A stretch of 64,000 bases of DNA, from NCBI RefSeq assembly GCF_022846255.1, contig NZ_AP025682.1. One strand, written 5' to 3'. This document shows, in pieces, positions 11,268 to 63,463 of the stretch (positions are counted from its first letter, which is position 1; each line of letters starts with the position of its first letter). The position numbers and the translations under genes are program-made. The stretch is from Escherichia coli. GTDB taxonomy: Bacteria > Pseudomonadota > Gammaproteobacteria > Enterobacterales > Enterobacteriaceae. The notes below the pieces were generated by a model. That model was not told where the DNA came from. It made no database searches and worked only from the letters and a program-made list of their open reading frames with translations.

Positions 11268-12693
11268 TAATGCCAGTCAGTTAAGCAACTGACTGGCTCT
11301 TTTTCGGGGCTGTGGGGTATTTCCAGGGCCTCTCCTTTACCACTCTCGGGAAGGCCCTTTCCCTTCTTGTCGGTAATTTCACAAGTTGTCCCATACTTGC
11401 AAGATCGCGCATCAGCTCCGGTATACGTCCCGGTGAAGCGCCCTGCAATGTCATCAGCATTCTCATCACCATTCCACATGATTCTGAGAAACTCAGTTGA
11501 TTCGGCCAGTAACCTTTCAGATGTTCCGCCATTTTAATCATCTGATATCTCACCAGATTATAAGCCAGTAAGACACCCCACAGCTCTTGCTCCACAAGCT
11601 CCGGTTTTTTACTTCTCAGCGTCAGCCTGCTCAGTTGCATCGTCTGTTTTATCTCCCTGTATCCCAGTTCGATTTCCCAGCGATGACTGTACAGATCCGC
11701 CATTTCTCCTCCGGGGAAGCGCATGGCGTCCGTCATCGACGTCAGCAGATGGCAGACTTTTCCTTTGCGCGTCACGGTCAGCAGGCGGGCTGTCACTTCA
11801 TTTCCCAGTCCCGGCCACTTTTTTCGTGCCTGCGGGCTGGTTTTCAGCTTCACCAGATGATCGCCTTTACCCAGTTTTCTGATCTCTTCATATTGCGCTC
11901 CCTTTCTGAGAGGTATCATCCAGTGGCGGTGTTCTCCCGCCAGGCTCCAGGCATTTAACAGTCCCAGTGAGTAATAACCTTTATCCATTAACGTCAGAGT
12001 GTTATCGCCGGTTTGTTCTATAAGTTGCTCAGCAAGCTCATTTTCGCTGTTCTTCATCGTGCCGAAGGCTGCAGCCGTCAGCAGATGGCTGGTCAGTTCC
12101 ATCTGGCAGACCATTTTGACCTGCGGGTAGAGCGCCGGGTTCCCGGCATGTGTCTGGCGGGGGAAGGCTGCATCGTTCTCTGGTGTATCCGGTGTGCGCC
12201 AGAACACACCATCGATGGCCAGCAGGGTCAGGCCGCACCAGTGCGGATGCGGCGTGGCGTTATGCCAGAGCTGCGCTGTTTTCGTGAACACGCGGCGGAC
12301 AGCCTCACTTCCCAGGCGCTGGCGGGCCTGAATAACGGCACTGGGGGCAACGAAGGGGCGATTGCCCGGCAGCATGATGTCCAGGCGATTCACAATCTGG
12401 TGAAGAGGTTCTTTACGCTCAAGCGCCATGCCAACAATACACCAGACCATCATTTCGAGGGGAAGACGGCGCTTGCGTAGCGTTACAGTACCTGATTCGG
12501 CAAGGCAACGAGAGATGAGTTCGGGGTCGAGGTAATCCCCCAGAGAAGTCAGTGGGTTACGCAGAGAATCGTAACGGGATACCAGATCAAGAGCCTGTCC
12601 AATGTGCATAAAAAAATCCGGAAACAAGTGAGCGTTTCCGGATTCTTACACAGCCACTGGATCGGTCAACTGATCCTTAACTGATCGGCATTA
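11268..12693 (-). mobile_element. Insertion sequence IS4 (1426 bp), intact
   Basis: Terminal inverted repeats taatgccagtcagttaag (left) and cttaactgatcggcatta (right); single transposase ORF; flanked by a 13-bp direct repeat. Confidence 0.9.
11281..12609 (-). CDS. insG: IS4 transposase InsG (442 aa from [10 protein letters not shown]; track ORF extends to 12627)
   Basis: DDE transposase; sequence recalled as IS4 transposase (…[14 protein letters not shown]… region). Confidence 0.9.
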
Positions 12694-12706
12694 CAGCTCA
12701 AGGCTG
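12694..12706. repeat. IS4 target-site duplication, right copy (cagctcaaggctg)
   Basis: Exact 13-bp direct repeat of 11255..11267. Confidence 0.85.
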
Positions 12707-12729
12707 CCGTTTTGTGTTTCAGGTTTCTG

Positions 12730-13467
12730 TTATGTATTGCTGCTGTTTGCGGCGATGATTTTCGCTACTTTTTCAGCTTGCGCATTCATCTGCATCTGAC
12801 GGTATGCATTTTCCATCAGCGGCAGCGCATCACGCGTAGCCTGGGTATCCGGATAGTCGCGCAACATGCCTTCTACGCGGTTAACGACAGCAACCCATGC
12901 ACCACGTTCTGTATAATACTCGGCAACGGAGTATTCATATTTCGCCAGACGATCTTTCAGGAATACCAGACGTTTGGTGGCATCGGTGGTGTACTGACTG
13001 TTCGGATAGCCGCGCACCAGTTTGGAAAAGTCACTAAACGCAGCTCGTGCATGTTGAGGATCGCGATCGCTACGGTCAACGCCAAAGAACCCTTGCAGCG
13101 CACTGTCATCCAGCGCCATATTGGTCAGGCCACGCATGTACATGACATAATCGATATTCGGATGGGTCGGGTTAAGGCGAATAAAACGATCGATGGCAGC
13201 CTGTGCTAACGGCAAATCGGCGTTTTTATAGTAGGCGTAGATGAGATCCAGCTGCACCTGCTGCGAATACGGACCAAACGGATAGCGATTATCTAACGCT
13301 TCCAGTTGCGTTATTGCCTGTCTCCAGTTACCGTCCTGCAGCTTTTGTTGTGCAGTCGCGTAAATTTCATTTGGCGGATTATCAGGTACTTCTTCCTTTG
13401 ACCCCGAGCAACCCGCCAAAAACAGGCTTAGTGTGGCGGCTGCCACCAGATATTTCATGCGCGTCAT
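12730..13467 (-). CDS. bamD: Outer-membrane protein assembly factor BamD/YfiO (245 aa)
   Basis: Lipobox LAGC; TPR-like repeats; [26 protein letters not shown]. Confidence 0.95.
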
Positions 13468-13601
13468 GACGTTTTGACTTTCCTCAAAATGTAATACGGG
13501 AGATTCTCTGTTCCTGCTCCCGGTTAAGACCAGCTACAATAGCACACTATATTAAACGGCAAAGCCGTAAAACCCCAACGATAAACGAAGAAGCAGTATA
13601 T

Positions 13602-49748: not shown

Positions 49749-49954
49749 TTACCGTTAAATCATTTTAAAAATCAGTAAGTTGTATCGAGTTTGTATGCTT
49801 TACTGTCATTAACTTACTGTATGTTGATCCAGTGTATTTAACCTTGATAAACTCAGTCCAGTAACACAAAGCCGCAACACATTGCATTTTGTCCCGTAGA
49901 AAAGACTTGTATGTGTGTGCTTGTTTTCTGCGCCTACGCAGATAAGGATTGAGA

Positions 49955-51352
49955 ATGCCGCGCACTGTAACACATAATCCGGATAGCCCCAATAATGACG
50001 ATGTTTTAGCCGCATCTGAAAAATGGGACGCCTGTAAACCCCCCTATACCAGCGCACACATGAAAATCTGTGTTGCTGCCGCCAAAATCATCCTCGCTGC
50101 TTCCGGCGTGGCTCGCCGTTCCAAATACGAAAAAGAGAACTATCTCCGTATCGATTTCAGCAAAGCCGGTAAGGTTACATTTTACGCCGAGTTTCCAAAA
50201 AAGATGGGCCTCAAAGGTAAAAAGCTCGGCGAGTGGCCGGAGCTCGCTATCCAGCTGGCGCGCGAAAAAGCGCTAGGTATGGCTGACGGTGGCCTGCGGG
50301 CAGAGTCCGTACATGCAGCGCTGGAAATGTACCGGGATGACCTCAAAGCCAAAGTCGCCCGGCAGAAGCTGAGCCCGGACAGTTTCACAACCTACGGGGT
50401 GCGTATCGACCGGATTAAAGCAACGTTCGGCGAGCGCGAGGTGTTCAGCGACGTAACATACAATCGGCTGGTGGAAGTGCTGGACGAGTGGATCGCTACT
50501 CGCTCGAACAATAACGCCCTGGAGTTGTTTGCCGAGCTCCGTCGGTTCTGGAAGTTCTGCGCACCTACTCTTTGCAACGGCCGCAATGTTGCCGCCAGTC
50601 TGCCAGATGATTATGTTTCCTCCCGCGTACAGAAACCTACCCCCACACGGCTTTTTACCGATATTGAATCAATCGCCCGACTCTGGCTCAATGTTGCTGC
50701 CTGCACCTCTGTACACCAGAAGAATGCTGTTCGCTTCATGATCATCACTGGTGTTCGTCCGATTAATGTCCATAACCTGCGCTGGGACTACGTTCACGAG
50801 GAGGCTGGTGAAATTGTTTATCCGGAAGGGGTTATCGGCATGCGAGGGGCTATGAAAACACAAAAGGCTTTCCGCCTGCCGATAACCCCTGAGATCCGGC
50901 GGATTATCGACGAGCAGAAAGCCTGGCGTGATTCAGTTCCTGAGTGCAACAGGGATTATGTATTTTTGCAGCCACGTGATCCAATGCAGCCATTTTCAAA
51001 ACGATCACTGGATAAGCTGGTGAAAACATACAGCCCGGACGGGGCTGTAAAAGGAATAAAACATGATGGGACTGTTAAAGGGAAAGACGGTGCATTTAAT
51101 ACGATGTGCCGTAAATTCCTTAAGAGCAATGTTATTGCCTTGATGAAGGAAAGAGGCTATTCCCGCTCAGACCGAAGGGAAATCAGCCTCCTTTGCCTTC
51201 ACCACTCCAGCAAGTCAGATGACCCGATGGCAGAACATTACGACTTTTCTGATGAGATTTTACAGGAAGAGATTGCGTTGAAGCGCGAAGCTTTCGAGGC
51301 TCACGAGCGGAGCATACTTGCGCAGGTGGCATTGCTACGGCGGCGAGGTTAA
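49955..51352 (+). CDS. Phage-type tyrosine integrase (start uncertain: TTG 49949, ATG 49955 with AAGGA RBS, or ATG 50060)
   Basis: C-terminal catalytic-domain pattern ending ...LHHSSKSDDPMAEHYDF with the tyrosine nucleophile; arm-binding-like N-terminus; position at the element boundary. Confidence 0.85.
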   Translation: MPRTVTHNPDSPNNDDVLAASEKWDACKPPYTSAHMKICVAAAKIILAASGVARRSKYEKENYLRIDFSKAGKVTFYAEFPKKMGLKGKKLGEWPELAIQLAREKALGMADGGLRAESVHAALEMYRDDLKAKVARQKLSPDSFTTYGVRIDRIKATFGEREVFSDVTYNRLVEVLDEWIATRSNNNALELFAELRRFWKFCAPTLCNGRNVAASLPDDYVSSRVQKPTPTRLFTDIESIARLWLNVAACTSVHQKNAVRFMIITGVRPINVHNLRWDYVHEEAGEIVYPEGVIGMRGAMKTQKAFRLPITPEIRRIIDEQKAWRDSVPECNRDYVFLQPRDPMQPFSKRSLDKLVKTYSPDGAVKGIKHDGTVKGKDGAFNTMCRKFLKSNVIALMKERGYSRSDRREISLLCLHHSSKSDDPMAEHYDFSDEILQEEIALKREAFEAHERSILAQVALLRRRG

Positions 51353-51549
51353 TACTGGCTGCGACATTTTTGAATAAAAGCGTCGATATTTCGGCGCTCA
51401 TAACGAACTACTTTTGCACTGAAACGAATTGGTGCCAGGATAGCCCGATGACGATGCTTAATATTCCACTCACATAGCGTTTTCTGTGTAATACCTAACT
51501 TTTGGCATACTTCATCCGGGGTGAGTAAATCGTCGGGTTTCTCGCTCAT
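51349..51549 (-). CDS. AlpA/excisionase-family small DNA-binding protein (66 aa)
   Basis: MSEKPDDLLTPDEVCQKLGITQKTLCEWNIK HTH resembling the AlpA/Xis family; convergent with and overlapping the integrase 3-prime end. Confidence 0.7.
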   Translation of the reverse strand: MSEKPDDLLTPDEVCQKLGITQKTLCEWNIKHRHRAILAPIRFSAKVVRYERRNIDAFIQKCRSQY

Positions 51550-52940
51550 GCTATACCTCTCTTTTTCATGGCATCGAGCAGGATGTCCTGCACTGTTCGT
51601 TTTGAGTTGCGCCGCTCCATCACCATTTCATCCATAGTGTCGGCAGCAATAATGTGGTGAATAAATACCGGACGATTGTGTCCGGCCTGTATCTGCCTGG
51701 TGGGGCCGATACGTTCAATAATTTGCTGATATTGCTCCAGGTCCCACCAGTGTGAGAAAAATACCAGTATATTTCCGCCGTCCTGCATGTTCAGGCCGTG
51801 GCCCGCGCTGGCTGGGTGTGCAAAGAGAACAGGAATCTTTCCGGAATTCCAGTCGCGCAGTGTCTGTGGATCCTGGTCGAGGTGACGACCGCGAGGGAAT
51901 GCTTTAAGCAAGCGTTCAAGATCGTGTTTCCAGTGATAAGCAACCAGCACAGGTGCGCCAGCTGCTTCGGTCAGTATGCTGTCCAGCGCCTGTAGTTTGG
52001 TGTCATGCAGTTCTGACCAACTTCCGGTGTCATCTGTGTATACTGCGCCGCTGGCGATTTGCAGACACTTCAGTGTCTTTGCCGCGGCGTTCGGTGCTTC
52101 GATGCCTTCGCCATTCAGCTCGAGGAACATTTCCTTTTCCATTTCACGATACTGCTGACGGGCCTTCGGTGGCATATCCACGCGGATTACGTTATGGATG
52201 GGGTCTTTGATATCGAACCAGTCGGCCGCATCCAGCGAGAGGGTTACATCGGCTAACGCTCGCTGTATTTCACCCTGTGAGTGAGCAAAAGGCTCCAGTT
52301 TGGTCCAGCTCTGCCCCGGAAACTGTATCGAGTTGAACCAGCGTGAGGTAAACGCGCCGTAAGTGCGCCCGAGACGTTGCCCCTGGTCCACAAACCACGA
52401 TTGTCCCCACAAATCTACCAGGCCGTTCGGTGCTGGCGTACCGGTGAGATTTATCCAGCGCCGGACATACTTATGCGCCACTTTGCCCAGCGCCGCCGCG
52501 CGCTTACCACCACCGCGCAGCCGGAAGGATTTTAGCCGGGTGCTTTCATCTGGAATGACAGTACCGAACGGCCATCGTTCTCCCAATTCTTCAATCAGCC
52601 AGACAAGGTTATCGTAGTTGATGGTGAACACGCTTGCGTTGCTGTTCGTCAGCGCCATAGAGCGCGCTTTGGCATTACCAATAATTGGCTGCACCTCGAT
52701 ATTGCGCAAATGTCCCCACTTCAGTGCTTCATCCGGCCATGTGCTGGCAGCCACGCGCAGCGGCGCGAGGACCAGTGCGGGGCATGTTTCTGCCCCTGCC
52801 ATAAAGAGATCTTCCAGCGCAGTGAGCGTTGCCACGGTTTTACCCATTCCCATCCCCGCCCAGATGTTGCCGCGCAGGGTTTCGGTTTCGTGGTTGATAA
52901 TGAGATCTTGGTAGGGGCGAGGTATATATTTTGGGGGCAT
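51546..52940 (-). CDS. SNF2/DEAD-like superfamily-2 helicase (464 aa)
   Basis: Walker A GMGMGKT, DExx-like VIPDESTRL, helicase C-terminal domain; AGGAG RBS 9 nt upstream of the ATG at 52940. Confidence 0.8.
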   Translation of the reverse strand: MPPKYIPRPYQDLIINHETETLRGNIWAGMGMGKTVATLTALEDLFMAGAETCPALVLAPLRVAASTWPDEALKWGHLRNIEVQPIIGNAKARSMALTNSNASVFTINYDNLVWLIEELGERWPFGTVIPDESTRLKSFRLRGGGKRAAALGKVAHKYVRRWINLTGTPAPNGLVDLWGQSWFVDQGQRLGRTYGAFTSRWFNSIQFPGQSWTKLEPFAHSQGEIQRALADVTLSLDAADWFDIKDPIHNVIRVDMPPKARQQYREMEKEMFLELNGEGIEAPNAAAKTLKCLQIASGAVYTDDTGSWSELHDTKLQALDSILTEAAGAPVLVAYHWKHDLERLLKAFPRGRHLDQDPQTLRDWNSGKIPVLFAHPASAGHGLNMQDGGNILVFFSHWWDLEQYQQIIERIGPTRQIQAGHNRPVFIHHIIAADTMDEMVMERRNSKRTVQDILLDAMKKRGIA

Positions 52941-52961
52941 ATAATATGGCTCCTAAACAAC

Positions 52962-52983
52962 AAAAGGCCAATTTAGGCCTTTT
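52962..52983. terminator. Terminator hairpin after the cargo gene at 53003..53920
   Basis: aaaaggcc aattta ggcctttt, 8-bp stem flanked by A/T runs (reads as a terminator on both strands). Confidence 0.6.
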
Positions 52984-53002
52984 GTTGTTTTAAAAATGTT
53001 AT

Positions 53003-53920
53003 TTATAATAGTGCTGTTACTATTGCATCTTTAAAAATATTTTCTTCTTCATTTATTAAAGGTGATGACAGATGAATAATTACTTCTTTTCCTGTCAATA
53101 CTATTTGCTCGACTTGAAATCCTGCGTTGTGTAGTCTTTGGCGTAACTTTTCTAGTGCTGATTTTGATATACTAAATCCTTCACTCCTTATAGTATAACT
53201 GGCAACTCCATTTTTAATAATATCTACAGAGTTGTCAATTTCCTGCTGCGAGTAATTTTTCGGTGAGTCGAAAAATCTGGATTTTGTCGTTGCTGTTGCC
53301 CTAAGAGATATCAATAATGATTTGATATCTTTAATCTCAGATGCCAGATACTCAGTTTCTGATACTTCTTTCTGGTCTAGTTGTGCAACTTTGAAAGTGC
53401 CAAAATGTTTGAGGAATGTTGTGTATTCAGGATCAGTTACTGACTTTAAATATGTTTCTTTTATCTTGCTCGCAAGTCTTTCTTTGAATAAATTGATTGA
53501 TTGGTATCTTAAATCCGAAGGGTACTCTAAATGTTCAATTGATGAAATGTCAAAGCTATAAGGAGTGCGCTCGTCCTTAATAATTACGGTCGGTTTGTCA
53601 AATGCGAGACGCATTCCTAATTCAAACATTACATTAGCGTTTCGAGCACTTATATCGCAAACAACTATGGGGTTTTCATAAAGATTTTGAACAATTCGTT
53701 TTTGTATTACTGCAACATCATCATCTGAACTTACCAAATTTGCCTTGAATCCGGCATCATTTGATGCTTCACAAATAATGTCATGAACATTTCTCCAATG
53801 TCCAGTGGGATAACCTTCTATGTCCGCAATTGGCATAATAATGCCGCATATATGAGGTGGCATATTTTTGTTGTCTTTTACATCATCTTGGTTTATTTCT
53901 TTCGTTTGTTGCTTAGCCAT
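53003..53920 (-). CDS. Hypothetical cargo protein (305 aa) with a Rossmann-like N-terminal domain of NDT/TIR-fold appearance and an unknown C-terminal domain
   Basis: N-terminal pattern ICGIIMPIAD ... IVVCDISARNANVMFELGMRLAFDKPTVII (beta-strand, then conserved Glu in an FELG context, as in nucleoside 2-deoxyribosyltransferase/TIR-like folds); gene is conspicuously AT-rich; own terminator. Confidence 0.5.
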   Translation of the reverse strand: MAKQQTKEINQDDVKDNKNMPPHICGIIMPIADIEGYPTGHWRNVHDIICEASNDAGFKANLVSSDDDVAVIQKRIVQNLYENPIVVCDISARNANVMFELGMRLAFDKPTVIIKDERTPYSFDISSIEHLEYPSDLRYQSINLFKERLASKIKETYLKSVTDPEYTTFLKHFGTFKVAQLDQKEVSETEYLASEIKDIKSLLISLRATATTKSRFFDSPKNYSQQEIDNSVDIIKNGVASYTIRSEGFSISKSALEKLRQRLHNAGFQVEQIVLTGKEVIIHLSSPLINEEENIFKDAIVTALL

Positions 53921-53935
53921 AGCTTACACAGACTC

Positions 53936-54220
53936 CTATTGTAATTTTTTGCCTAATATACATGAAAGCTCCTTACTATCCAGTACTACCACGGTAAAGC
54001 CCAGTTTTCGCAGACGTTCATGCTCGCGCAACTGATCAGGTCGTGGTGGTTTGCCTGGTGCTTTGCATTCGACAAAGACGATGCGACCGCCGGGTAGCAG
54101 AACAATGCGATCTGGTACCGAGCGGAGACCGGGAGATACGAACTTAAAGGCAACCCCGCCAGCCTTTTTTACTTCAGCGACGAGGTGCTTTTCGATTAGG
54201 TTTTCACGTTCATAGGCCAT
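53936..54220 (-). CDS. VRR-NUC domain nuclease (94 aa)
   Basis: PD-(D/E)xK-type motif ...PDRIVLLPGGRIVFVECKAPG...; typical partner of phage SNF2 helicases. Confidence 0.75.
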   Translation of the reverse strand: MAYERENLIEKHLVAEVKKAGGVAFKFVSPGLRSVPDRIVLLPGGRIVFVECKAPGKPPRPDQLREHERLRKLGFTVVVLDSKELSCILGKKLQ

Positions 54221-54414
54221 TAGCTTTCGCCTTCCTGCTTTTTGCGTTTCTTCATGCAGATAGCGCAGTTCTCAGGATGGTCATGCCATTCGTCAATCCT
54301 GATACCTGTGAACATCCATTTTCCGCATAGTGATATGGCTTCCCCCGAATTAAAGAAATGTGCTTTTTTCGACAGGGCGGGGAACCCCCAACCTTTATTA
54401 TCGATATTAGACAT
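54220..54414 (-). CDS. Small Cys/His-containing phage protein (64 aa), possible zinc ribbon
   Basis: ...SLCGKW...HDHPENCAICMKKRKKQ; stop overlaps the VRR-NUC start. Confidence 0.45.
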   Translation of the reverse strand: MSNIDNKGWGFPALSKKAHFFNSGEAISLCGKWMFTGIRIDEWHDHPENCAICMKKRKKQEGES

Positions 54415-54602
54415 CGTCCACCTCCTTACGCTTTTCGCGCATGTTCTGCATCAGACAAAAATCAAACCGACGTTCGCTTTGGCCCAGACCTGCATCGCCC
54501 GGTCGTACCCGCTGGACTGTTCAAGGCGCAAAGCCTCCCGCGCAGTCCGGTAATAAAGCGGACTGTCCCGGTATTTAAATGACATAGGGTTTTTATTCCC
54601 AA

Positions 54603-54625
54603 ATAAAAAACCCCGCAATGCAGGG
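54603..54625 (-). terminator. Rho-independent terminator after the TIR-like gene
   Basis: Minus-strand RNA cccugc auu gcgggg (one G-U pair) followed by UUUUUU. Confidence 0.6.
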
Positions 54626-54649
54626 TTGTAATCAACAATAAGGGGGTAA

Positions 54650-55411
54650 TTACGAGGAAGCGTTAGCTATTTGAGCTTGTGTAAATTCGAAACCAGAATT
54701 TTGTAACCGTTGCACTAGACGAGGAACTGTTTCACGTACATGGTCGTTGAAATTCAGATACAAAATCCCGTTAGCATCAGAAGGCTGTTCTAGGTGCTGT
54801 TTCTGAAGGATTGCTACATTGCTGCGCCCTAAGGACGAAAGAAGCATACCCATCTCGAGTACAACGTTCTGTCTTGCGCGGGGTTGGATTTCTGCTTCAC
54901 CGGCGCGCTTTGAGTATCCCATATCATCAGGTGTCAAAAGAACAATCCCGAAACGGGTAGCAGTTTGTCCTTGCCCAATTTCACGTTCAAGCTCTTCAAT
55001 AATGGTGAGTCCAGTCCCTCCCGTATTCTGCAAAATGAAATGGTCTGGTAATCCAAGTTTATGAAGGATTAGCTCAAGTTGTTCCTTTGCAGTATGGTCA
55101 TGGCCGTGAACAATGAATATCTTTTTGGGAAGCTCAGATGGCTGTTCTACGGCTAGTGGTGTTGCCGTGGGGGGCGTTCCTAAATGGGACATTATTGCAG
55201 TTTCAACATTGGGACGTTCTTGAGGGTTACCTTGAAACTGAATGGTCCGGGTGGTGTAAAGGTTAACAATTACGCCATTCGTTAAACGATAGCAGTCATA
55301 AGTCTCACGCTGTTCGTGGGAAAAATTGGTGAACCCACACTCCCTCAAAAAGTCAGGAAAAGATTCTCTCGGGTATGGATAGGTGATCGGCATTTCAGTT
55401 AGTTCCTGCAT
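54650..55411 (-). CDS. TIR-like nucleotide-binding domain protein (253 aa), Cap12-like TIR-like family with an unknown about 80-aa N-terminal domain
   Basis: KIFIVHGHDHTAKEQLELILHKLGL ... FGIVLLTPDDMGY ... RARQNVVLEMGMLLSSLGRSNVAIL, matching my recollection of the 'predicted nucleotide-binding protein containing TIR-like domain' family (PF10137); AAGGA RBS; own terminator. Confidence 0.65.
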   Translation of the reverse strand: MQELTEMPITYPYPRESFPDFLRECGFTNFSHEQRETYDCYRLTNGVIVNLYTTRTIQFQGNPQERPNVETAIMSHLGTPPTATPLAVEQPSELPKKIFIVHGHDHTAKEQLELILHKLGLPDHFILQNTGGTGLTIIEELEREIGQGQTATRFGIVLLTPDDMGYSKRAGEAEIQPRARQNVVLEMGMLLSSLGRSNVAILQKQHLEQPSDANGILYLNFNDHVRETVPRLVQRLQNSGFEFTQAQIANASS

Positions 55412-55475
55412 AAGTATTGTTCCTTTAATTTACTCGAATTCAGCATGTCGCCATAGCTCGATAAGGTGAGTTATA

Positions 55476-57551
55476 TCAATCTTTTTTGTAGTGGTACGCC
55501 TCAAAGCCGCCAGCGTTCAGCGGAATATCGGGTGCCCATTCGGGGTTAGTGGAGAGAAGCGCGGAAAGCGCTTTATCGTTGAAATCTTCTGTGTCTGGTG
55601 CTTCGGTGATCACCTCGTCGTGTACCGTTAGCACAATGCTGTAACCGGCACCCTCGATCAGCGGCATGTTTCTGGCCAGAACGTCGCGGGCGGCCGCCTG
55701 GGTGACGTTCTCCACCAGCTTTCCGCCGTAGGTTTTGAGTCGTTGCCATTTACGCGAATAAGAGTTAACACCCATGTAGGTGATATTCCCTTGTTCGATA
55801 ACCGGAGACGGGTAGCATACAGCGCGTCCGGATGGTAGCTGTATGCGCAGCCACGCGCCATCACGTCGGATTTTAAGATAGCCGCAATACAATGTTTTTT
55901 GCGGTGTGGCGATTGCTGTGCGGACAGTGCGCTCCAGCTCGTACCAGAAATCGCAGGTCGCCGGGTGCGCCCTGCGCCACAGGCGCTTGAGCGAGTCACA
56001 TGCGATGAATACACGCTCGGACAGGCCAAAGGTCGACTTACGCTTAACCGATTCGTCGTACCAGCTTTTTGCCTCGCGGATAACATCGCGGGGAATGTTT
56101 GGCAGTGCGGCGTTCGCCAGCTCGTCGAGATCGAGACCGTAAACCAGAGCAAAAGTGATGAAAGCCGATACACCACCTCCATAACCCAGACCGAGTTCCA
56201 TGACTTTACCGATCTGACGCATGTGTTTATCAACATCATCTGGTGCAATATCGAAAGCTTTTGCATACGCCAGTTTATATAAGTCCGGACCCGTTCCAGC
56301 GTCATACTCTCTGAATGCATTCAGTTTCCATTCTTCTCCCGCCAGCCATGCCAGCATACGGCCTTCAATGTTTGACAAGTCACTTACCACTAGTTTTTTG
56401 CCTGTTGGCGCGATAATGCAGCCACGTAACGCTGAACTGGTTAGTTCCATGATATTGTCAAACAGCAGGTCTGCACATCCGGCTTTCAGTGCTTCGATGC
56501 CTTCGTCTATTTGTTCCTGTTTTAGTGAAGGGCGGGGAAGGTTCTGGGGCTGGAATAGCCGTCCGGCCCAACGACCGGTACGTGACGCCCCGCAGAACTG
56601 TAGCGTACCGCGTAAGCGCCCGTCGTGGCTTACGCCTTTCATCAGTGCCTTGTATTTACTGGTGCTGGTAGTACTGGCTTGCAGGCGGATAGCCAGCAGT
56701 TCTTTCACGGCAGATGATAAATCGGGGTCGGCCATACGACGTTCCAGGGTACTGCGTTGCATGTCTGGTAGCTCCACACCGTAGGATTCAACGATGTGCT
56801 TAATCAACGCGTCCCGTTGTGTGGCTGCCTGCACTTCGCCATCAGTCATTTCCTGTGTACGCTTTGCTAGGCGCTTTTGCTCCTGGTCTACCGCTTCGAT
56901 CGCAGCGCGCGCGAGTTGCATGTCCATGCAGACGCCCCGGTCGTTGATCTGCTGATCACGATGCCAGAGCGCCAGCTCTGTCCCCTGATAATTCCACTTC
57001 GGCAGACGTTTATAGACTTCGCGCATTGCCTCGATATCCAGTCCGGCGTAAGCAACAAAGCGCCGCCATTCTTCCGGGTGGGTTTTGCTGGTGGCACGGC
57101 GCAGTTTGCTGTTTTTCGGGCGGGGCTTACAGAACAGCTGGATCAGCGCTTTACCTTCTTTGTCCTTCGCTTTGTCTTGCGGGACGCCGAGTATTTCGCA
57201 GAGTTCCCCCAGAGACCCCGGGAGACCGTGCGCCAGCGCCTGCACCATTGTGTCTCGCCAGCGTTTGGCGCTACCTGCAACAACGCATTGGGGAGTGTGC
57301 AGCAATGCATGGCGCAACATGGTGCGATCGAAATGGCTGTTGTGTGCATATATTAGTACGCTCTCATCGCTGAGAGCTGTCAGTAGTCGTGTCGGCAAGT
57401 TATAGTCTGTGGTTAAATCGTGTACGCTGACGGGGTCTTCGTCGATTGCCCATGCGAATAACATGATTTCGACTCCTTCTGCATAGACATGGGTGCCGTT
57501 TTTTATTGGGATTTCGCTGAAAGTTTCGAGGTCTAACCAAAGTTTTTGCAT
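55476..57551 (-). CDS. Phage family-A DNA polymerase with N-terminal 3-5 exonuclease (start at ATG 57551; track ORF extends to a TTG at 57593)
   Basis: Exo I motif LDLETFSE near the N-terminus, Exo-like [12 protein letters not shown], polymerase motif [14 protein letters not shown]-type motif YGGK. Confidence 0.85.
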
Positions 57552-57580
57552 CAAGTAAGGACCCGTTGGATTTAATAAAT

Positions 57581-57607
57581 AAAAAGCCGCCAAAATGGCG
57601 GCTTTTT
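57581..57607 (-). terminator. Rho-independent terminator after the SIR2-like gene
   Basis: Minus-strand aaaagccgcc atttt ggcggctttt followed by a U-rich tract. Confidence 0.65.
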
Positions 57608-57627
57608 ATAACCGAAGTTAAGAATGC

Positions 57628-59130
57628 TTAATATGATAAATAATCATACAAGCATAAAAGTCGCCTGTATTGGGTATCAATTTTATGCCCTGGTTTTGTT
57701 AAATAATCTCGTAGTTGTTTCAATGAAATAGTATCGTTTAGTACGCAATACATAATCGTGTTAGCAACTTTATACTCTTTCGTTTCTTTTAGTATTTCAT
57801 CAATAGACACAGCCTCACTCTTACATGTTTTAATTCGAGAAAGGTTACCAATGATTTTATCTAGCTGCCGTTTTCTGTATGTCTCGGTATTTTCTAGTTC
57901 AGGGCAGATAGAACTAAAAGCGTATATTGGAAAGTGTTCGCTATTAGCTATGGTTTGCTTATTCAGTAATGCGATAAGCTGAGAGTTTGCTTCGTCAACT
58001 ATTTTAAAATAGTTCTGTATCATTTCAGATTTTGTTTGATAAACATATTGTACGGTTCTTTCTGAACCAACAGCAATGACCATTTCATCATTGCGAAGTT
58101 CATCTAAATTTTCTGTAATTTTAACCTTTATCTCACCACCACTTTTGATGGTACTCCAAACTTTTTGAACCTTTCTTATGTCCATTGCGGATACTGGCAA
58201 AACTAGTCCCGAGATGGCATCATATACAGCTTTGTAATTGTTTGTTTTTATTTTGTTTATTCTTATGATAGACATGCCTTCTATATCTATGTCATGCTCC
58301 GTAATTTCAGTTGACATGCTGTCTTTTTCGTATTCAACCAAAAGAAAATTATCTTTTATCCTTTTTGCAAGTTCGGTATTTAAGTCAACGTATGAGAATA
58401 TGGTTTTTAATAAGTACTTAATGTTTTTATCGCTAATACTATACCCTATAAATATGATAGGGTTGTGTATGAATATTGAGAGTAATTGAGCGCGAATTAA
58501 CTCATATTTATTGTCGAAGTTTGCGTAGTCTTCACCTGTGATAATTATGTTGTTAGGATCACTAACACAGCCATGTATTTTGTAAACTGAACCGTATGGG
58601 TTACTTAAAAGAATGTTATTACCAATCAGTGGGTTAAATTCGAAGATGTTCTCTACGAGTTGGTCGTAGTTTGTTGTAATGATGGAGCCTATGTTTTTTC
58701 TTGTTTTTATTAAGCTGTTTATTTCCTCCATCATTGACTCTTTTATCTTTAGGTCTTTAAGTATTGAAGTTAAATAAATTTTGAATCGACTTAGTTTTTT
58801 TCCTTTTTTCATGTGCTCATAGAAAACATCATTGATGTCTTTGAACTTACCGTTACGATCTTCTGCCAGCTTTTTATTAAAAATATCTTCAAGTTTTGTA
58901 GCTAAGATATCATATCGATAGTCGTCACCTTCTAGGCTTTCAGCTTTCAAATCGTAGTAAAACTCAGCATTACCGGTTAGTTCCATTGCGACACTCAAAA
59001 GAAGACCATCCCAGCTAAATGAGTTTTCTAGATACCGTAGGCTAAATCCTGTTCCAATGAATAGAACAGGGTGGTTTTTATAGTGACTTACAAACTCTTG
59101 GATTTCCATACCGATTCTCAAAGTTGACAC
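57628..59130 (-). CDS. SIR2-like (sirtuin-fold, SIR2_2-type) protein, 500 aa, with an about 250-aa C-terminal domain of unknown type
   Basis: Motifs PVLFIGTGFS, SIITTNYD, YKIHGC and IIFIGYSISD, in the order seen in defence-associated SIR2 domains; GTG start at 59130 with AGAGG RBS (first ATG at 59109); roughly 30% GC by hand count versus about 50% in flanking polymerase; own terminator. Confidence 0.75.
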   Translation of the reverse strand: MSTLRIGMEIQEFVSHYKNHPVLFIGTGFSLRYLENSFSWDGLLLSVAMELTGNAEFYYDLKAESLEGDDYRYDILATKLEDIFNKKLAEDRNGKFKDINDVFYEHMKKGKKLSRFKIYLTSILKDLKIKESMMEEINSLIKTRKNIGSIITTNYDQLVENIFEFNPLIGNNILLSNPYGSVYKIHGCVSDPNNIIITGEDYANFDNKYELIRAQLLSIFIHNPIIFIGYSISDKNIKYLLKTIFSYVDLNTELAKRIKDNFLLVEYEKDSMSTEITEHDIDIEGMSIIRINKIKTNNYKAVYDAISGLVLPVSAMDIRKVQKVWSTIKSGGEIKVKITENLDELRNDEMVIAVGSERTVQYVYQTKSEMIQNYFKIVDEANSQLIALLNKQTIANSEHFPIYAFSSICPELENTETYRKRQLDKIIGNLSRIKTCKSEAVSIDEILKETKEYKVANTIMYCVLNDTISLKQLRDYLTKPGHKIDTQYRRLLCLYDYLSY

Positions 59131-59220
59131 GTAATACCTCTATAAAAACAAATAGCCGTAAAAATTCCAATAGCTTTTTGGATCTCGCCCGGTGTGTAAC
59201 CGGGCGTCTATGAAGAAGGG

Positions 59221-59769
59221 TTAAATCAGTGCTTCAGCATCAGCACCTTCGCTGATATCGTCGAAATCGTCAGCGCTTGCCACTCCGCCGCCAGCGAATG
59301 CATCGCCGTCTCGCAGGAACTGGACTCCGCCGAGTGAGGCATTAATGCGTTTACCGAAATTATTGTCCTGTGCCCAGATATCGATAACGGCGTTTACATA
59401 GCACCCTGCATAGGGACGTCCATCAGCCTGAATTAGTGGCGAACGATCGCGATCAAGAACAGCTGGGCGCGCTTTGTTAGCAGCGTTCAGGAAGAAATTG
59501 CCGGGAAAACCTTCATACTCTGCTTTTTCATCACCATCATGCAGGCACAGATTGAGTTTTTTCTCCAGCTGGTTATAAATGGACTCCCACTTCTCCCCCC
59601 ATTTTTCCTTCGCTACCTGCTTCATAGCTTTACGGATTTCTTCCAGTTGTGGGTGTTTGGGAGACATTAAAAATACTGCGGAGAAACGCGGATCGCCTTC
59701 GCCGTTTACAGTTTTAGCTTCAAACAGAGACGGGAAGGCCAGACGAACATTGTTCAACTTCAGTTTCAT
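59221..59769 (-). CDS. Phage ssDNA-binding protein (DUF2815-like, 182 aa)
   Basis: MKLKLNNVRLAFPSLFEAK N-terminus and acidic C-terminal tail (DDFDDISEGADAEALI), typical of phage SSBs. Confidence 0.7.
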   Translation of the reverse strand: MKLKLNNVRLAFPSLFEAKTVNGEGDPRFSAVFLMSPKHPQLEEIRKAMKQVAKEKWGEKWESIYNQLEKKLNLCLHDGDEKAEYEGFPGNFFLNAANKARPAVLDRDRSPLIQADGRPYAGCYVNAVIDIWAQDNNFGKRINASLGGVQFLRDGDAFAGGGVASADDFDDISEGADAEALI

Positions 59770-59784
59770 GGGTATTTCCTTAAA

Positions 59785-61086
59785 TCAGATGAGGTCTGCG
59801 GTTAGCGTATCGTCGGATACGTCGTCGAAATCATTTACAGGGTTGATATTGAGTGCGGGGCGTGGGTCTGACTCGGGAACGACGGTGGGTTTACCATCAG
59901 CTCGTGTTATCAGTGCCTCGACTTTTGACCAACGGCGCGGACTGGCCTTTTTGATAAGTTTTTCGGCTTTTGTGGGACTAATAAGTTTAAAGTCGAATAC
60001 TTCTTCAGTTTTGTACCTGAACTGGTCCTTCAGAAGTGCGCGAGCTGCCTCTTCATCACTCCAGGCCCGGTTACCTTGTTTTCCTGTTACCAGTTTAAAC
60101 CCCGGTACCGAATGTCCGGCATTGAGTTCATTGTGAACCCGGTCCCGTACTTCCTTTAGCCAGGATTCAATAAAGTCGGCCTGGCTATAGATCTCCGCAA
60201 GCTGCTCAATGGTTAACAGAGGTACACGTGCGCTGGCATTGGTGATTATTTCGCTGACAGGCTTTGTCAGATCTTCAAAGTCGCTGGCCGCTGTTTGTAA
60301 ATGCTGCATTTTCTGGGCAGTGCAAATAGCTTTTGCTTTACAGAAGCGGCACTGTTTTTCTCCAGGTATGAATTTTTCCAGCGGTAGTGTCTCAATGCCT
60401 TCGCATTCAGCAATATTGAGAACAAGCATCGCACTGGTTGCGGCCTCCTGTGCCCGTTCACCGAAAGACTGAAGTTCCTGCACGGTTAACGACCATTCTG
60501 AAACGTGGTTGAGCCTTGGCTGGTGAATAAATAATCTTACAGTCTCAAAGTCATACAGCATGCTGAATTGTTCGAGCGCACCCAGAGCATACAGTTGTAG
60601 TTGCTCATTTTGTTCTGCATCAATGCGGACGCCTTTGCCATATTTCAGGTCGTGGATTTGTAATTCGTTACCAGCGATGATTATGCCGTCGGCAGTTCCG
60701 AAAGATTCTTCCACACCCGTTATATGTGAGAAATCAACACGTTGTTCAACCAATAGTTCATTATTCTTTGCAAGAGTCCAGACCGTATCAACATACCGGC
60801 CGACGGCTTCGACCATTTCATCATCCACCTGTGGGCCAGATGTATCATCAGGATTTTCGCGAAGGGGGTATGAGCCGAGAAACATAGAAACATTGCATCC
60901 GGCGTAGTGTTCCGGGTGGCTTTGCCTGTTTCGTAGAACTTTTTCAGCAAGCGCGTGCGCTGCAGTGCCCTCGATTGCAAAAGTTGTTTCTTTATCCGGT
61001 TGTGTGGCCTCCAGCGCCAGACTTCCTGGGCAGCGCATCCATCGATGCGCTGATGATGGAGAAAGTTGTGCATGAACGTCTGGCAT
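59785..61086 (-). CDS. Phage PD-(D/E)xK nuclease (DUF2800-like, 433 aa)
   Basis: N-terminal [15 protein letters not shown] motif and C-terminal Cys cluster ([10 protein letters not shown]); acidic tail. Confidence 0.7.
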
Positions 61087-61088
61087 GA

Positions 61089-61991
61089 TTAACCCTCCAG
61101 TGCTTTTTCAGCCAGGGTGATTACTTCAGCGAGATTTTCATCCGTTACTTCACCAAGTTTCCTGGCTCCCTGTTTTTCCAGAATTGCAATAGCTTCTGCC
61201 CGGTAACCCCCTTTTGCTAACTGGAGGATCAACCCTTCAGCTTGTTTGCGTAGTGCCGCGAAATCAATTGTATGGTCATCTTTGGCGTCATTATTCTGGC
61301 TGGAATTTGCTGCGTCTCTGCGTGCAAATTCTTCCTGCAGCTGAAGGTACTCAACACGGTTGATCTCGATATGGCCTTTTTTCAGCATCTCGTTCAACTT
61401 GCGTAAGGTGTGGAGTTCACTGGCTGCTGTGCCGGATACATTTTTGACGTAAAACGGCCCCGTGCGTTCTCCATCTTTGTTACTGGCCTTTTTCGGCTTA
61501 ACTTCATCACGCCCATCCGCAGGTGCATCAAGTAGCTGCTCGGCAAAAGCACGTCGCTCGCCGATGGTTGGCAGGTCGTCCCAGAACTTAAGGATGTTAC
61601 GGGACAGGTCCAGGAGAGCAGGTTTAAGCAGCGCCCTGGCTCGTTTGACGCCCTGCAATGCGCTGTCGAGAGCATCAATCTGAACTACTCGTTTATCGCC
61701 TTCAGCATCACGGTAGGCAACAGCACGTTGCAGCATGTCTTCTGTGATAGGGGTGGCTACCGGGTAGAAACCCGCCAGTGCGATAACGTCGCTGAACTCC
61801 AGATCATCCAGTGTCATTGCCGCTGACATATTTTCAGTTTCAGTTGCTGTATCCCGACATTCCTGCACTCGTGAAATCGTGTCAGGATGCATAACAATGC
61901 CTGATGCCATTGTGCGGATAAGACGTTCAAGCAGCGCATTATGTTGTGCCAGAAGTTGATTATTAAGTTCTAGACTGGTTTCTAAACTCAT
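61089..61991 (-). CDS. Hypothetical phage protein (300 aa)
   Basis: ORF in operon upstream of the DUF2800 gene; no motif recognised. Confidence 0.5.
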
Positions 61992-62170: not shown

Positions 62171-62253
62171 GCTGTTGCGAGTGCGCTTTCAGACATAAAA
62201 AAGCCCGTCACTTGAGGCGGGCAAAGACTACACACAGCAATTACATGGATGAT

Positions 62254-62448
62254 TCAGTTGGTATTGTGCGTACGTGGTACCACAAGGTTGAAGCGGACAC
62301 GCCAGTGCGTTGCAATGGTATGCAGGAAAGCACCACATCCAGGGCAGTGCTCATAACATTCGTTGATTTGGTATCGTTTTGGCTTTGGTGTCAGAAGCTG
62401 TGTTTGGCAAGCAGGGCATTCACCTTTGAGCGGTTTATACGTTTTCAC
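62254..62448 (-). CDS. Small Cys-rich phage protein (64 aa), possible zinc finger
   Basis: CPACQ ... CYEHCPGCG; first gene of the leftward operon. Confidence 0.45.
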   Translation of the reverse strand: MKTYKPLKGECPACQTQLLTPKPKRYQINECYEHCPGCGAFLHTIATHWRVRFNLVVPRTHNTN

Positions 62449-62717
62449 GCCGTTTCCTCATTCAGTTCACTTTGGTGGTTCGGCGGCTTCGACTTGTATC
62501 AGTAGACAGTGCTTCGCCGCACCCCAAAGGGAACTTACTGACCCGTATTGCCGACATCCTGTCCCGCCACGGTCCCGACGCATGGTTTAGAGTCGCGCCG
62601 TTCGACTTGTGGTTTAAATATCTGTGTATAGATATCTTAACTTTACGCGTATAGTTAAGACTTCTAAACTCACAAAGTCAAGTGTTGAGGTTAAGAAAAG
62701 TGAACTTTTTCGGATAG

Positions 62718-62746
62718 GTAAAGAAAAGCCCGCTTAGGAAGCGGGC
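62718..62746 (-). terminator. Terminator after the CI-like repressor gene
   Basis: Minus-strand gcccgcuu ccu aagcgggc followed by UUUUCUUU. Confidence 0.6.
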
Positions 62747-62770
62747 ATGTGGTATAGAGTGAATTTACGC

Positions 62771-63463
62771 TCAGAGCAGAACGGAGTACCAAAATACTTG
62801 GCCTATAATCCTGATTTTATTAGCCTCTTGATTAAAATACTCTTCGTCTGCGTATTCATCCCTATTGAAAGAGCGTATCCGGAGTCCGCTTGGGAGACGG
62901 TACAATAGTTTGACACGAAGTAATCCGTCTTGGTCTATGGCGTACATTTGACCATCTTTTACACCTGTTTTTGATGTATCTATGCCGACGACAGCGCCAT
63001 CCGGTAATACCGGTTCCATGCTGTTGCCGTGGATGCTGACACAAGCCGCACAATTTACGTCAACACCTGCTTTGCGCAACGTTGAACGGGCGAATCTTAA
63101 CTTACATCCCATTCGATCTATATCAACATAAGTACCATTACCGGCAGATAGCTCAATTTCCTGATAGAACGGTATTTCCACTTCATCATCCTCTAATGGC
63201 GTTGATGAGTCCCATACAGAAAACCCTCCCTCAACTTGTGCATTAGAATGTATTTCTTTGGTATCGCTTGTTTTGCCTGAAAGTAGCCACTCTGGAGAAA
63301 CGTTCAATGCTTCGGCCAGATTTATAAGATTTTTCCCGTTAGGTGTGGTGTTTCCGGATTCCCATTGTGAAATCGTGGCTTTAGTTAGACCAATACGTTT
63401 AGCAAGCGCATCCTGCGTTAGGTGGACATTGCGACGAGCCTCGCGAATACGATCATTAATCAT
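62771..63463 (-). CDS. CI-like repressor (HTH_XRE plus S24 LexA-like peptidase domain, 230 aa)
   Basis: N-terminal HTH LTQDALAKRIGLTKATISQWESG; C-terminal S24-like region with GNSMEP (Ser nucleophile) and a downstream Lys; GAGG RBS. Confidence 0.8.
   Translation of the reverse strand: MINDRIREARRNVHLTQDALAKRIGLTKATISQWESGNTTPNGKNLINLAEALNVSPEWLLSGKTSDTKEIHSNAQVEGGFSVWDSSTPLEDDEVEIPFYQEIELSAGNGTYVDIDRMGCKLRFARSTLRKAGVDVNCAACVSIHGNSMEPVLPDGAVVGIDTSKTGVKDGQMYAIDQDGLLRVKLLYRLPSGLRIRSFNRDEYADEEYFNQEANKIRIIGQVFWYSVLL

Follow-up and report, generated by a model that had tools for sequence, protein, structure and literature searches.

Within a 64,000-nucleotide stretch of Escherichia coli DNA (contig NZ_AP025682.1; hereafter the window), a prophage integrated beside yfhL carries three accessory genes interleaved with its leftward replication operon. 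We call them cargo A, the TIR-like gene and the SIR2 gene, and the positions that they occupy slots A, B and C. We think it probable, though by no means assured, that these are three autonomous single-gene cassettes lodged in three recombination hotspots, that their products are abortive-infection hydrolases of N-glycosidic bonds equipped with variable sensor domains, and that no signalling links the three. Among prophages otherwise 97–99% identical, each cassette is swapped independently of the other two, and each of the three families also travels alone on other mobile elements.

An earlier note on this DNA, made from its letters, had described a conserved replication module interrupted by three minus-strand genes, and that description held. 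The backbone was verified gene by gene against PHROGs, whose names are concordant with the RefSeq names on relatives 97–99% identical to the window, and the three open reading frames (ORFs) lie exactly where they had been placed: cargo A at 53003–53920 (305 aa), the TIR-like gene at 54650–55411 (253 aa) and the SIR2 gene at 57628–59130 (500 aa), all on the minus strand and all intact in the window. The same module is 99.3% identical in the isolated phage vB_EcoM-611R5 (42.7 kb), which includes two of the three cargo genes and is without the SIR2 gene. Among 5426 complete E. coli genomes, 160 have the backbone at the same site; cargo A is found in 23 of these prophages, the TIR-like gene in 36 and the SIR2 gene in four, and no genome has all three. 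The fixed presence in all related phages that formed part of a refuting condition in the earlier note is not what was found, as most of the 160 relatives lack each of the genes.

Alignment of the window with eight related loci by blastn revealed sharp breakpoints, common to the eight relatives, on either side of each cargo gene. The exchange cassette of slot A spans c. 1.05 kb (52923–53970), with homology stopping at 52913–52927 and resuming at 53966–53973. That of slot B, which holds the TIR-like gene, lies at 54593–55474 (breakpoints 54220/54592 and 55475/55488), while that of slot C, with the SIR2 gene, spans c. 1.65 kb (57534–59186; breakpoints 57533 and 59187/59221), homology with the related loci L003, L009 and L013 resuming at 59187. 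The element in the window is an ST38-type prophage, 98–99% identical on both sides, in which only slot C has been exchanged for the SIR2 cassette.

Between the shared breakpoints the contents differ from one prophage to the next, in line with the view that the module is conserved but its slots are variable, and that the three genes sit in them as accessory cargo. Slot A has at least seven alternatives, including BstA (PADLOC, 1.4e-115), PDC-S42 (6e-40) with two unknowns, DUF6338, Dcm (annotated in RefSeq as a DNA cytosine methyltransferase), Rha/Arc regulators and opposite-strand unknowns. Slot B has at least five, among them DUF4406, DUF7446, a type II methyltransferase (8e-74), YfbU, Ant and an ATP-binding protein, and slot C likewise at least five, being occupied by Nmad5 with a small ORF, by unknowns of 199–229 aa on the opposite (plus) strand, by Ant, or by nothing. 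With their conserved flanks and variable content, and with BstA and PDC-S42 among the slot-A alternatives, the slots have the features by which prophage defence hotspots are recognized. Such a mixture of defence genes, regulators and modification genes supports a defence role for the cargo without proving it. The sibling loci with modification genes in the slots (Nmad5, DUF4406 and two methyltransferases) are L002 (8524–9162), L007 (4431–4730) and L010 (3493–5269). DUF4406 we take to be a member of the Pfam clan of the nucleoside 2'-deoxyribosyltransferases (NDTs), and the DNA- or nucleotide-modification genes traded through the slots may protect the phage's own DNA.

Conserved flanks around interchangeable accessory cassettes have been described in the defence hotspots of P2 prophages and P4 satellites (Rousset et al., 2022; PMC9122126). 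The slots resemble those hotspots in having conserved flanks and exchangeable cassettes that include known defence genes, with BstA occupying slot A of sibling prophages, but here three hotspots, and possibly four, are interleaved in the replication operon of another type of phage. In the literature we found no description of hotspots inside a DUF2800/DUF2815/PolA/VRR-NUC/SNF2 module.

The cassettes also have a recognizable anatomy. Each cargo gene had been called visibly more AT-rich than its neighbours, which is strongly the case for cargo A and the SIR2 gene (G+C fractions of 0.344, with 0.258 at third codon positions, and 0.332, respectively, against 0.49–0.55 for the backbone genes), and only modestly so for the TIR-like gene (0.453). 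Each had further been said to be followed by its own hairpin, and RNA folding recovered all three, on the minus strand and 13–23 nt beyond the respective stop codon. The hairpin 3' of cargo A (52955–52990) has a 15-bp stem flanked by A- and U-tracts, with a minimum free energy (MFE) of −23.3 kcal/mol (z −6.3) that none of 200 shuffled sequences equalled, and is possibly a bidirectional terminator. An intrinsic terminator 3' of the TIR-like gene (54609–54627) has an 8-bp stem and a U-run (MFE −11.3 kcal/mol, z −2.9), and one 3' of the SIR2 gene (57579–57609) a 14-bp stem and a U-run (MFE −20.1 kcal/mol, z −6.4). A terminator scan listed only the second of the three (54609–54627) and was not enriched overall relative to shuffled sequence (14 found, 13.4 expected), so the argument from the hairpins rests on their position and stability and not on their number. 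These private terminators suggest that transcription of a cassette is kept from running on into the replication genes downstream of it, and from them we infer that the cassettes are transcribed independently. Low G+C content together with a private terminator for each gene amounts to a moron-like anatomy. One more hairpin, GC-rich and without a U-run, lies just downstream of the DUF2815 gene at the right edge of slot C (59186–59206, minus strand; MFE −15.8 kcal/mol, z −4.4). Relatives that lack the SIR2 gene or have different cargo in slot C retain it, and at this boundary of the cassette it may act as an attenuator or as a processing site.

The three cargo genes are not one system. The SIR2 gene occurs without the TIR-like gene in E. 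coli 21KM1392; a 71% identical homologue sits, again without a TIR-like gene, in the slot between the single-stranded DNA-binding protein (SSB) and PolA genes of a Klebsiella prophage that has decayed and is present in hundreds of assemblies; and a 55% identical one stands alone between housekeeping genes in Aeromonas, also without a TIR-like gene. Conversely, at least 32 of the 36 E. coli genomes with the TIR-like gene lack SIR2 and at least 13 lack cargo A; homologues of the TIR-like gene stand by themselves in islands bounded by integrases, with Mrr, PemK and SMC-like genes nearby. A lambdoid prophage of Klebsiella has a homologue of cargo A in its accessory region, a small integrative element of Pseudomonas has one at its edge, and in Vibrio parahaemolyticus a homologue forms a single-gene cassette of a chromosomal integron (L034, 7836–8959) with attC-like repeats immediately on both sides; the genomic context of an Aeromonas homologue was uninformative. 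The Vibrio integron array has at least 24 attC-like repeats and also contains a protein with a BstA_C domain (12681–13553). The Klebsiella remnant (L019–L021), indexed in 668 blocks, adjoins sbcB and retains a truncated DUF2800 gene and a VapE fragment beside an intact SIR2 gene; it looks like a domesticated prophage.

This distribution bears on the proposal, made in the earlier note, that the SIR2 and TIR-like genes form a Thoeris-reminiscent pair. In such a dispersed system one of the two TIR-type proteins (cargo A or the TIR-like protein) would, upon infection, make a signal derived from nicotinamide adenine dinucleotide (NAD+), and binding of this signal to the C-terminal domain of SIR2 would set off NAD+ depletion, the polymerase gene merely lying between the two. 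Its attractions are that SIR2 and TIR-type domains occur within one 6-kb stretch, that ThsA is the solved structure nearest by sequence to the SIR2 domain (E = 4e-9), that PF10137, the TIR family concerned, is among the TIR Pfams used in searches for Thoeris-type systems, and that three of the four E. coli genomes with the SIR2 gene also have the TIR-like gene. Those three, however, count as one lineage, because over most of the locus their protein accessions are the same. The similarity to ThsA ends at the SIR2 domain, and the C-terminal part of the protein is predicted to be all-helical with no match to SLOG or Macro; neither cargo A nor the TIR-like protein is matched by the ThsB models of PADLOC; and the genes are non-adjacent, lie in separate exchange cassettes and assort independently, as the SIR2-only and TIR-only genomes attest. 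Type I Thoeris, then, shares with this locus a homologous SIR2 domain and a nearby protein of the TIR superfamily, but not the SLOG or Macro domain, the ThsB-type TIR protein, the adjacency or the obligate co-occurrence. We reject membership of Thoeris because of the domains present, the separation of the genes and their independent distribution, and the dispersed, Thoeris-like arrangement, which the distribution largely refutes, strikes us as very improbable. The fallback that the earlier note had allowed, independent single-gene systems, is the interpretation that our results favour.

The SIR2 protein (57628–59130, minus strand; 500 aa from GTG) belongs to the computationally defined defence candidate PDC-S25, from which it does not differ. 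It probably starts at the ATG at 59109, which would make it 493 aa long, because Met8 is invariant in homologues and most relatives have a 493-aa protein in RefSeq. Its assignment to the SIR2 type was borne out by the SIR2_2 profile (PF13289, E = 1.2e-20, residues 149–246) and by a nearly full-length match to the PADLOC model for PDC-S25 (PDLC04968, E = 4.1e-158; residues 4–500 on positions 4–514 of 517). The motifs TTNYD (152–156) and IHGC (185–188) are both present, N154, D156 and H186 recur without exception in 40 homologues that are 55–86% identical, and TTNYD and YKIHG align with TTNYD and YKMHG of ThsA, on the model of which we take Asn154 and His186 to be the catalytic residues.

Beyond the SIR2 domain, a conserved middle segment (300–365) is followed by the C-terminal domain that the earlier note had left unrecognized (366–500). 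This part is predicted to be all-helical and matched no profile, SLOG and Macro included. A profile of residues 298–500 run against 1.84 billion representatives matched only 184 proteins. The domain occupies the same C-terminal position in the long ones, and 19 of 20 long matches that were scanned carry SIR2_2, so that we reject the idea of a promiscuous sensor module. The C-terminal domain thus appears to be essentially private to the PDC-S25 family, whose architecture of c. 500 aa recurs in 1731 clusters, and it is the more divergent part (mean pairwise identity 44%, vs 66% for the SIR2 domain). The exception is P0453, a metagenomic protein of 432 aa in which an N-terminal Schlafen AlbA_2 domain precedes the last c. 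140 residues of the helical domain (25% identity over 156 aa), so that the effector has been swapped in this one case.

Among SIR2 effectors with solved structures (KomC of Kongming, ThsA, the SIR2-STAND protein Avs5, SIR2-HerA, DSR1/DSR2 and human FAM118B), KomC, ThsA and Avs5 are the structural neighbours of this protein. It differs from the whole group in being a single polypeptide of c. 500 aa with a private helical C-terminal domain, and it is without the HerA, STAND or KomAB partner of SIR2-HerA, STAND and Kongming systems. The ThsA, Dsr1 and other SIR2 models cover only the SIR2 part. Membership of DSR1/DSR2 was rejected, as the Dsr1 match (3.7e-5) extends over residues 149–278 only, on a profile of 1248 positions, and Dsr2 gave no match. 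DSR2 is reported to be activated by a phage tail tube protein. In strain 23CRST009 an IS1 element is inserted in the 5' end of the SIR2 gene (L005, 7905–8602), and in strain JNEC-KY203 IS1 apparently lies in the cargo-A gene, where the match comes in two pieces with an IS1 transposase beneath. These insertions hint at a fitness cost.

The TIR-like protein (54650–55411, minus strand; 253 aa) is a member of another computational candidate family, PDC-S35, and again no difference from that family was seen. Both PF10137, the Pfam family of CAP12/PycTIR-type TIR domains (E = 4.5e-31, residues 97–222), and a nearly full-length match to the PADLOC model (PDLC05003, E = 1.3e-108; residues 10–253 on positions 3–245 of 245) confirm the domain call, and proteins of this kind, c. 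250 aa long, fall into 2703 clusters. An N-terminal domain (c. 8–78), also recognized in the earlier note, is joined by a variable linker to the TIR domain (95–253). In alignment, the motif NVVLEMG (182–188) falls on VVFEFG in Cap12 TIR-STING proteins of solved structure, and the putative catalytic Glu186 within NVVLEMG is invariant in 41 homologues. Cap12 (of the TIR-STING and TIR-SAVED effectors of CBASS) and PycTIR (of Pycsar) therefore share with it the PF10137 domain and the catalytic-Glu motif, but the TIR-like protein has no STING, SAVED or cyclic-nucleotide-binding domain and there is no cyclase gene nearby. We excluded it from Cap12 on its NCBIfam score (34.8 bits vs a cut-off of 450) and its neighbours, all of which are replication genes, and from PycTIR on curated cut-offs and the partial nature of the matches.

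Mean pairwise identity in this family is 72% for the TIR domain and 34% for the N-terminal domain. When a profile of these N-terminal 70–80 residues was compared with 177,635 PDB sequences, the top three matches were LsoA (E = 0.009, on its second N-terminal domain, residues 107–164), RNase HIII (0.019) and 4py5 (0.35), an entry deposited as ‘Ribonuclease’ that is presumably a complex of RNase H3 with its substrate, although the PDB search does not say so. The three matches have in common a motif, (Y/W)x(T/S)Gxhx(F/V)QG, and a few family members give weak Pfam matches to RnlA_toxin and DUF3378. Individually marginal, these similarities together point to a domain of the type found at the N terminus of RNase HIII and as the N-terminal repeated domain (NRD) of RnlA and LsoA. 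Such domains have a TATA-box-binding-protein-like fold, which in RNase HIII contacts the RNA/DNA duplex. The likeness was absent from the descriptions of PDC-S35 that we found.

Cargo A (53003–53920, minus strand; 305 aa) is the least catalogued of the three. It had no significant match in Pfam, NCBIfam or PDB sequences (its profile against the PDB gave nothing relevant even at E = 10), matched only families of unknown function in PHROGs, has no entry in PADLOC 2023, Pfam-A or NCBIfam, and is the subject of no paper that we found. Its family is nonetheless large, with at least 4466 clusters at 90% identity (E ≤ 1e-3) of proteins of c. 300 aa, and spans Enterobacterales, Vibrio, Aeromonas and Pseudomonas. 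The annotation ‘RNA helicase’ that some members bear is one that nothing we found supports. A conserved N-terminal TIR/NDT-like domain (c. 23–165) is followed by a helix and a C-terminal domain (c. 228–305), and conservation is sharply divided between the two halves: residues 23–190 have a mean pairwise identity of 70% and 55 invariant residues, including H41, N94, N96, E100, R104, D108 and K109, whereas residues 191–305 are hypervariable (16%). The putative catalytic Glu100 sits in the motif NVMFELG.

At the level of the predicted fold, which comes nearest to the MilB, DNPH1 and NDT glycosidases and to TIR domains, the call of an NDT/TIR-fold-like protein appears to have been right. The structural model (pLDDT 74) has an alpha/beta N-terminal domain, a long helix and a confident beta-beta-alpha-beta-beta-alpha C-terminal domain, and its best Foldseek matches in the PDB are nearly all MilB, DNPH1/Rcl and NDTs (3e-5 to 1e-3). 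By hhalign, the family aligns with that of PF10137 (E = 1.9e-4, probability 48%), pairing ‘ANVMFELGMRLAFDKPTVII...EHLEYPSD’ with ‘QNVVLEMGMLLSSLGRSNVAIL...QHLEQPSD’ and Glu100 with Glu186 of the TIR-like protein. The PADLOC model of a CBASS TIR effector matches residues 54–134 (1e-6), and the Pfam NDT family reaches 6e-3 at best among 54 family members. MilB, DNPH1 (Rcl) and the NDTs are thus among the closest predicted folds, but cargo A has no significant sequence match to them and adds a helix and a hypervariable C-terminal domain. Swarozyc, a single-gene DUF4062 TIR-like NADase with an auxiliary domain, is activated by the phage portal and requires both Glu97 and the auxiliary domain (bioRxiv 10.64898/2026.05.01.722283). 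Cargo A resembles it in being a single gene with an N-terminal TIR/NDT-like domain, a Glu conserved close to residue 100 and, C-terminally, an auxiliary domain, but its folds lean towards MilB, DNPH1 and NDTs. We rejected membership of DUF4062/Swarozyc, as no Pfam match to DUF4062 was obtained in a scan to E = 10 and the families given for the 54 homologues do not include DUF4062. A bolder possibility, which we regard as unlikely though worth stating, is that cargo A founds a new and widespread single-gene anti-phage family whose effector is not an NADase but a nucleotide N-glycosidase like MilB and DNPH1; its C-terminal domain would recognize a phage protein, whereupon (deoxy)nucleoside monophosphates would be destroyed, possibly modified ones such as hydroxymethyl-deoxycytidine monophosphate (hydroxymethyl-dCMP) or hydroxymethyl-deoxyuridine monophosphate (hydroxymethyl-dUMP). 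If true, this would be a new effector chemistry in bacterial immunity.

Under our preferred reading, each hotspot would hold one self-contained cassette, a gene with its own terminator, and each gene would be expressed to the lysogen's benefit as a self-sufficient abortive-infection defence made up of one protein. A conserved domain hydrolysing N-glycosidic bonds would be coupled to a more variable accessory domain that holds the enzyme off until a phage is recognized. The contrast in conservation between accessory and enzyme domains (16 vs 70% in cargo A, 34 vs 72% in the TIR-like protein and 44 vs 66% in the SIR2 protein) fits a sensor role for the former. Once triggered, the SIR2 protein would hydrolyse NAD+ through Asn154 and His186, possibly after oligomerizing as KomC, ThsA and Avs5 do. 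The TIR-like protein would do so through Glu186, its N-terminal domain being the likely sensor, perhaps of a nucleic-acid duplex. In cargo A, Glu100 of a TIR/NDT-like fold would cleave NAD+ or a nucleotide, with the hypervariable C-terminal domain as specificity sensor. The three proteins would exchange no signal.

Several observations weigh against this reading. Upstream of the cargo genes we found only weak (9/12) matches to sigma-70 promoters, in a scan that was unenriched over shuffled sequence, and the genes are co-oriented with the replication operon, so that co-expression in the lytic cycle is possible. Nmad5, DUF4406 and the methyltransferases found in the same slots serve the phage, and slot membership is therefore no proof of defence. 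PDC-S25 and PDC-S35 receive passing mentions as phage defence candidates in the literature, where we found no experimental work on either. Finally, cargo A in E. coli was accompanied by the TIR-like gene wherever this was checked (in all three loci inspected and all 18 genomes present in both match lists). We nevertheless discounted the two as a functional pair, as the carriers represent one near-clonal prophage variant with identical protein accessions and each family occurs alone elsewhere.

A different explanation is that the cargo genes serve the phage's lytic cycle, as enzymes of the nucleotide pool or of DNA modification (an NDT/DNPH1-like glycosidase acting on nucleotides would be one) or as counter-defence enzymes that remodel host NAD+ or nucleotide metabolism, co-transcribed with the replication operon. 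Their place and orientation among the replication genes, the modification genes that siblings carry in the same slots, and the resemblance of cargo A to nucleotide glycosidases, namely MilB (a hydrolase of cytidine monophosphate and hydroxymethyl-cytidine monophosphate) and DNPH1, all speak for it. Yet the genes are dispensable, missing individually from most of the 160 relatives and, in the case of SIR2, from the isolated phage vB_EcoM-611R5; the strong terminator after each would stop read-through into the next replication gene; the families also reside outside phages, in an integron cassette, chromosomal islands and a housekeeping context; SIR2 remains intact in the decayed Klebsiella prophage; and a conserved enzyme joined to a hypervariable accessory domain is an architecture typical of immune sensors. 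On balance we give the lytic-cycle explanation a small chance of being correct.

It seems less probable still that the genes are selfish addiction or toxin cassettes, or decaying hitchhikers, maintained by post-segregational toxicity or by linkage and without a part in defence. The IS1 disruptions of SIR2 and, apparently, of cargo A suggest a cost, and low G+C content indicates recent foreign origin, as such an explanation would have it. Against it stand the size and strong conservation of the families, with their invariant catalytic residues, the intact ORFs of the window, and the lack of any conserved antitoxin-like partner adjoining the homologues at the loci inspected.

The surroundings of the cassettes are as follows. 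The host side of the window is the chromosomal order rnc-era-recO-pdxJ-acpS-yfhL, after which come the integrase and the prophage, which continues past the right end of the window. A tyrosine integrase gene (49949–51352, plus strand) marks the left prophage end adjoining yfhL, identified from its ORF and the RefSeq names of relatives at the same site. The leftward operon includes a small DNA-binding protein (51349–51549, PHROGs), the SNF2-type DNA helicase on the left flank of slot A (51546–52940; phrog_62, 4e-156), the VRR-NUC endonuclease (53936–54220; phrog_93, 3e-31), a 64-aa protein that is either backbone or semi-variable (54220–54414; phrog_2358, function unknown), the family-A DNA polymerase (55476–57551; phrog_17, 1e-123), the Gp2.5/Enc34-type SSB (DUF2815; 59221–59769; phrog_112, 2e-56) and the DUF2800 exonuclease (59785–61086; phrog_69, 4e-136), the last six on the minus strand. 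For the polymerase, the ATG at 57551 is a more probable start than the TTG at 57593 of the ORF listing, because the latter start would overlap the SIR2 terminator and relatives, in which the annotated gene is 2064–2076 bp long, start at the equivalent ATG. Just left of slot B lies a frameshifted remnant of an ANR-family regulator gene (54415–54592, minus strand), a RefSeq pseudogene in near-identical relatives; it is 73% similar to the intact copies of other relatives and equally frameshifted in all ST38-type relatives.

PHROGs further identified a 300-aa protein of unknown function (61089–61991) and a CI-like repressor (62771–63463). Between the replication operon and this repressor lies a fourth variable slot (62171–62770), which in relatives holds a plus-strand gene of 525–570 bp (e.g. 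L003, 14110–14679) and in the window only a Cys-rich ORF of 64 aa (62254–62448, minus strand) and a strong terminator (62728–62746).

Prophage defence hotspots and single-gene candidates of the NADase type are already familiar as a concept; cargo A adds a promising family that is not yet catalogued. Should the cargo genes prove not to be protective, the slots would still be a clear case of modular cassette exchange in prophages, ordinary on its own. If they do protect the lysogen, this locus would be a compact natural test bed, with three exchangeable slots in one replication operon and a different candidate immune gene in each. The catalogued families PDC-S25 and PDC-S35 would gain a function, and the large family of cargo A would become a new defence gene in which a TIR/NDT-like enzyme is joined to a rapidly diversifying sensor domain. 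It would also raise the tractable question of how a temperate phage avoids triggering its own NAD+- or nucleotide-degrading cargo upon induction.

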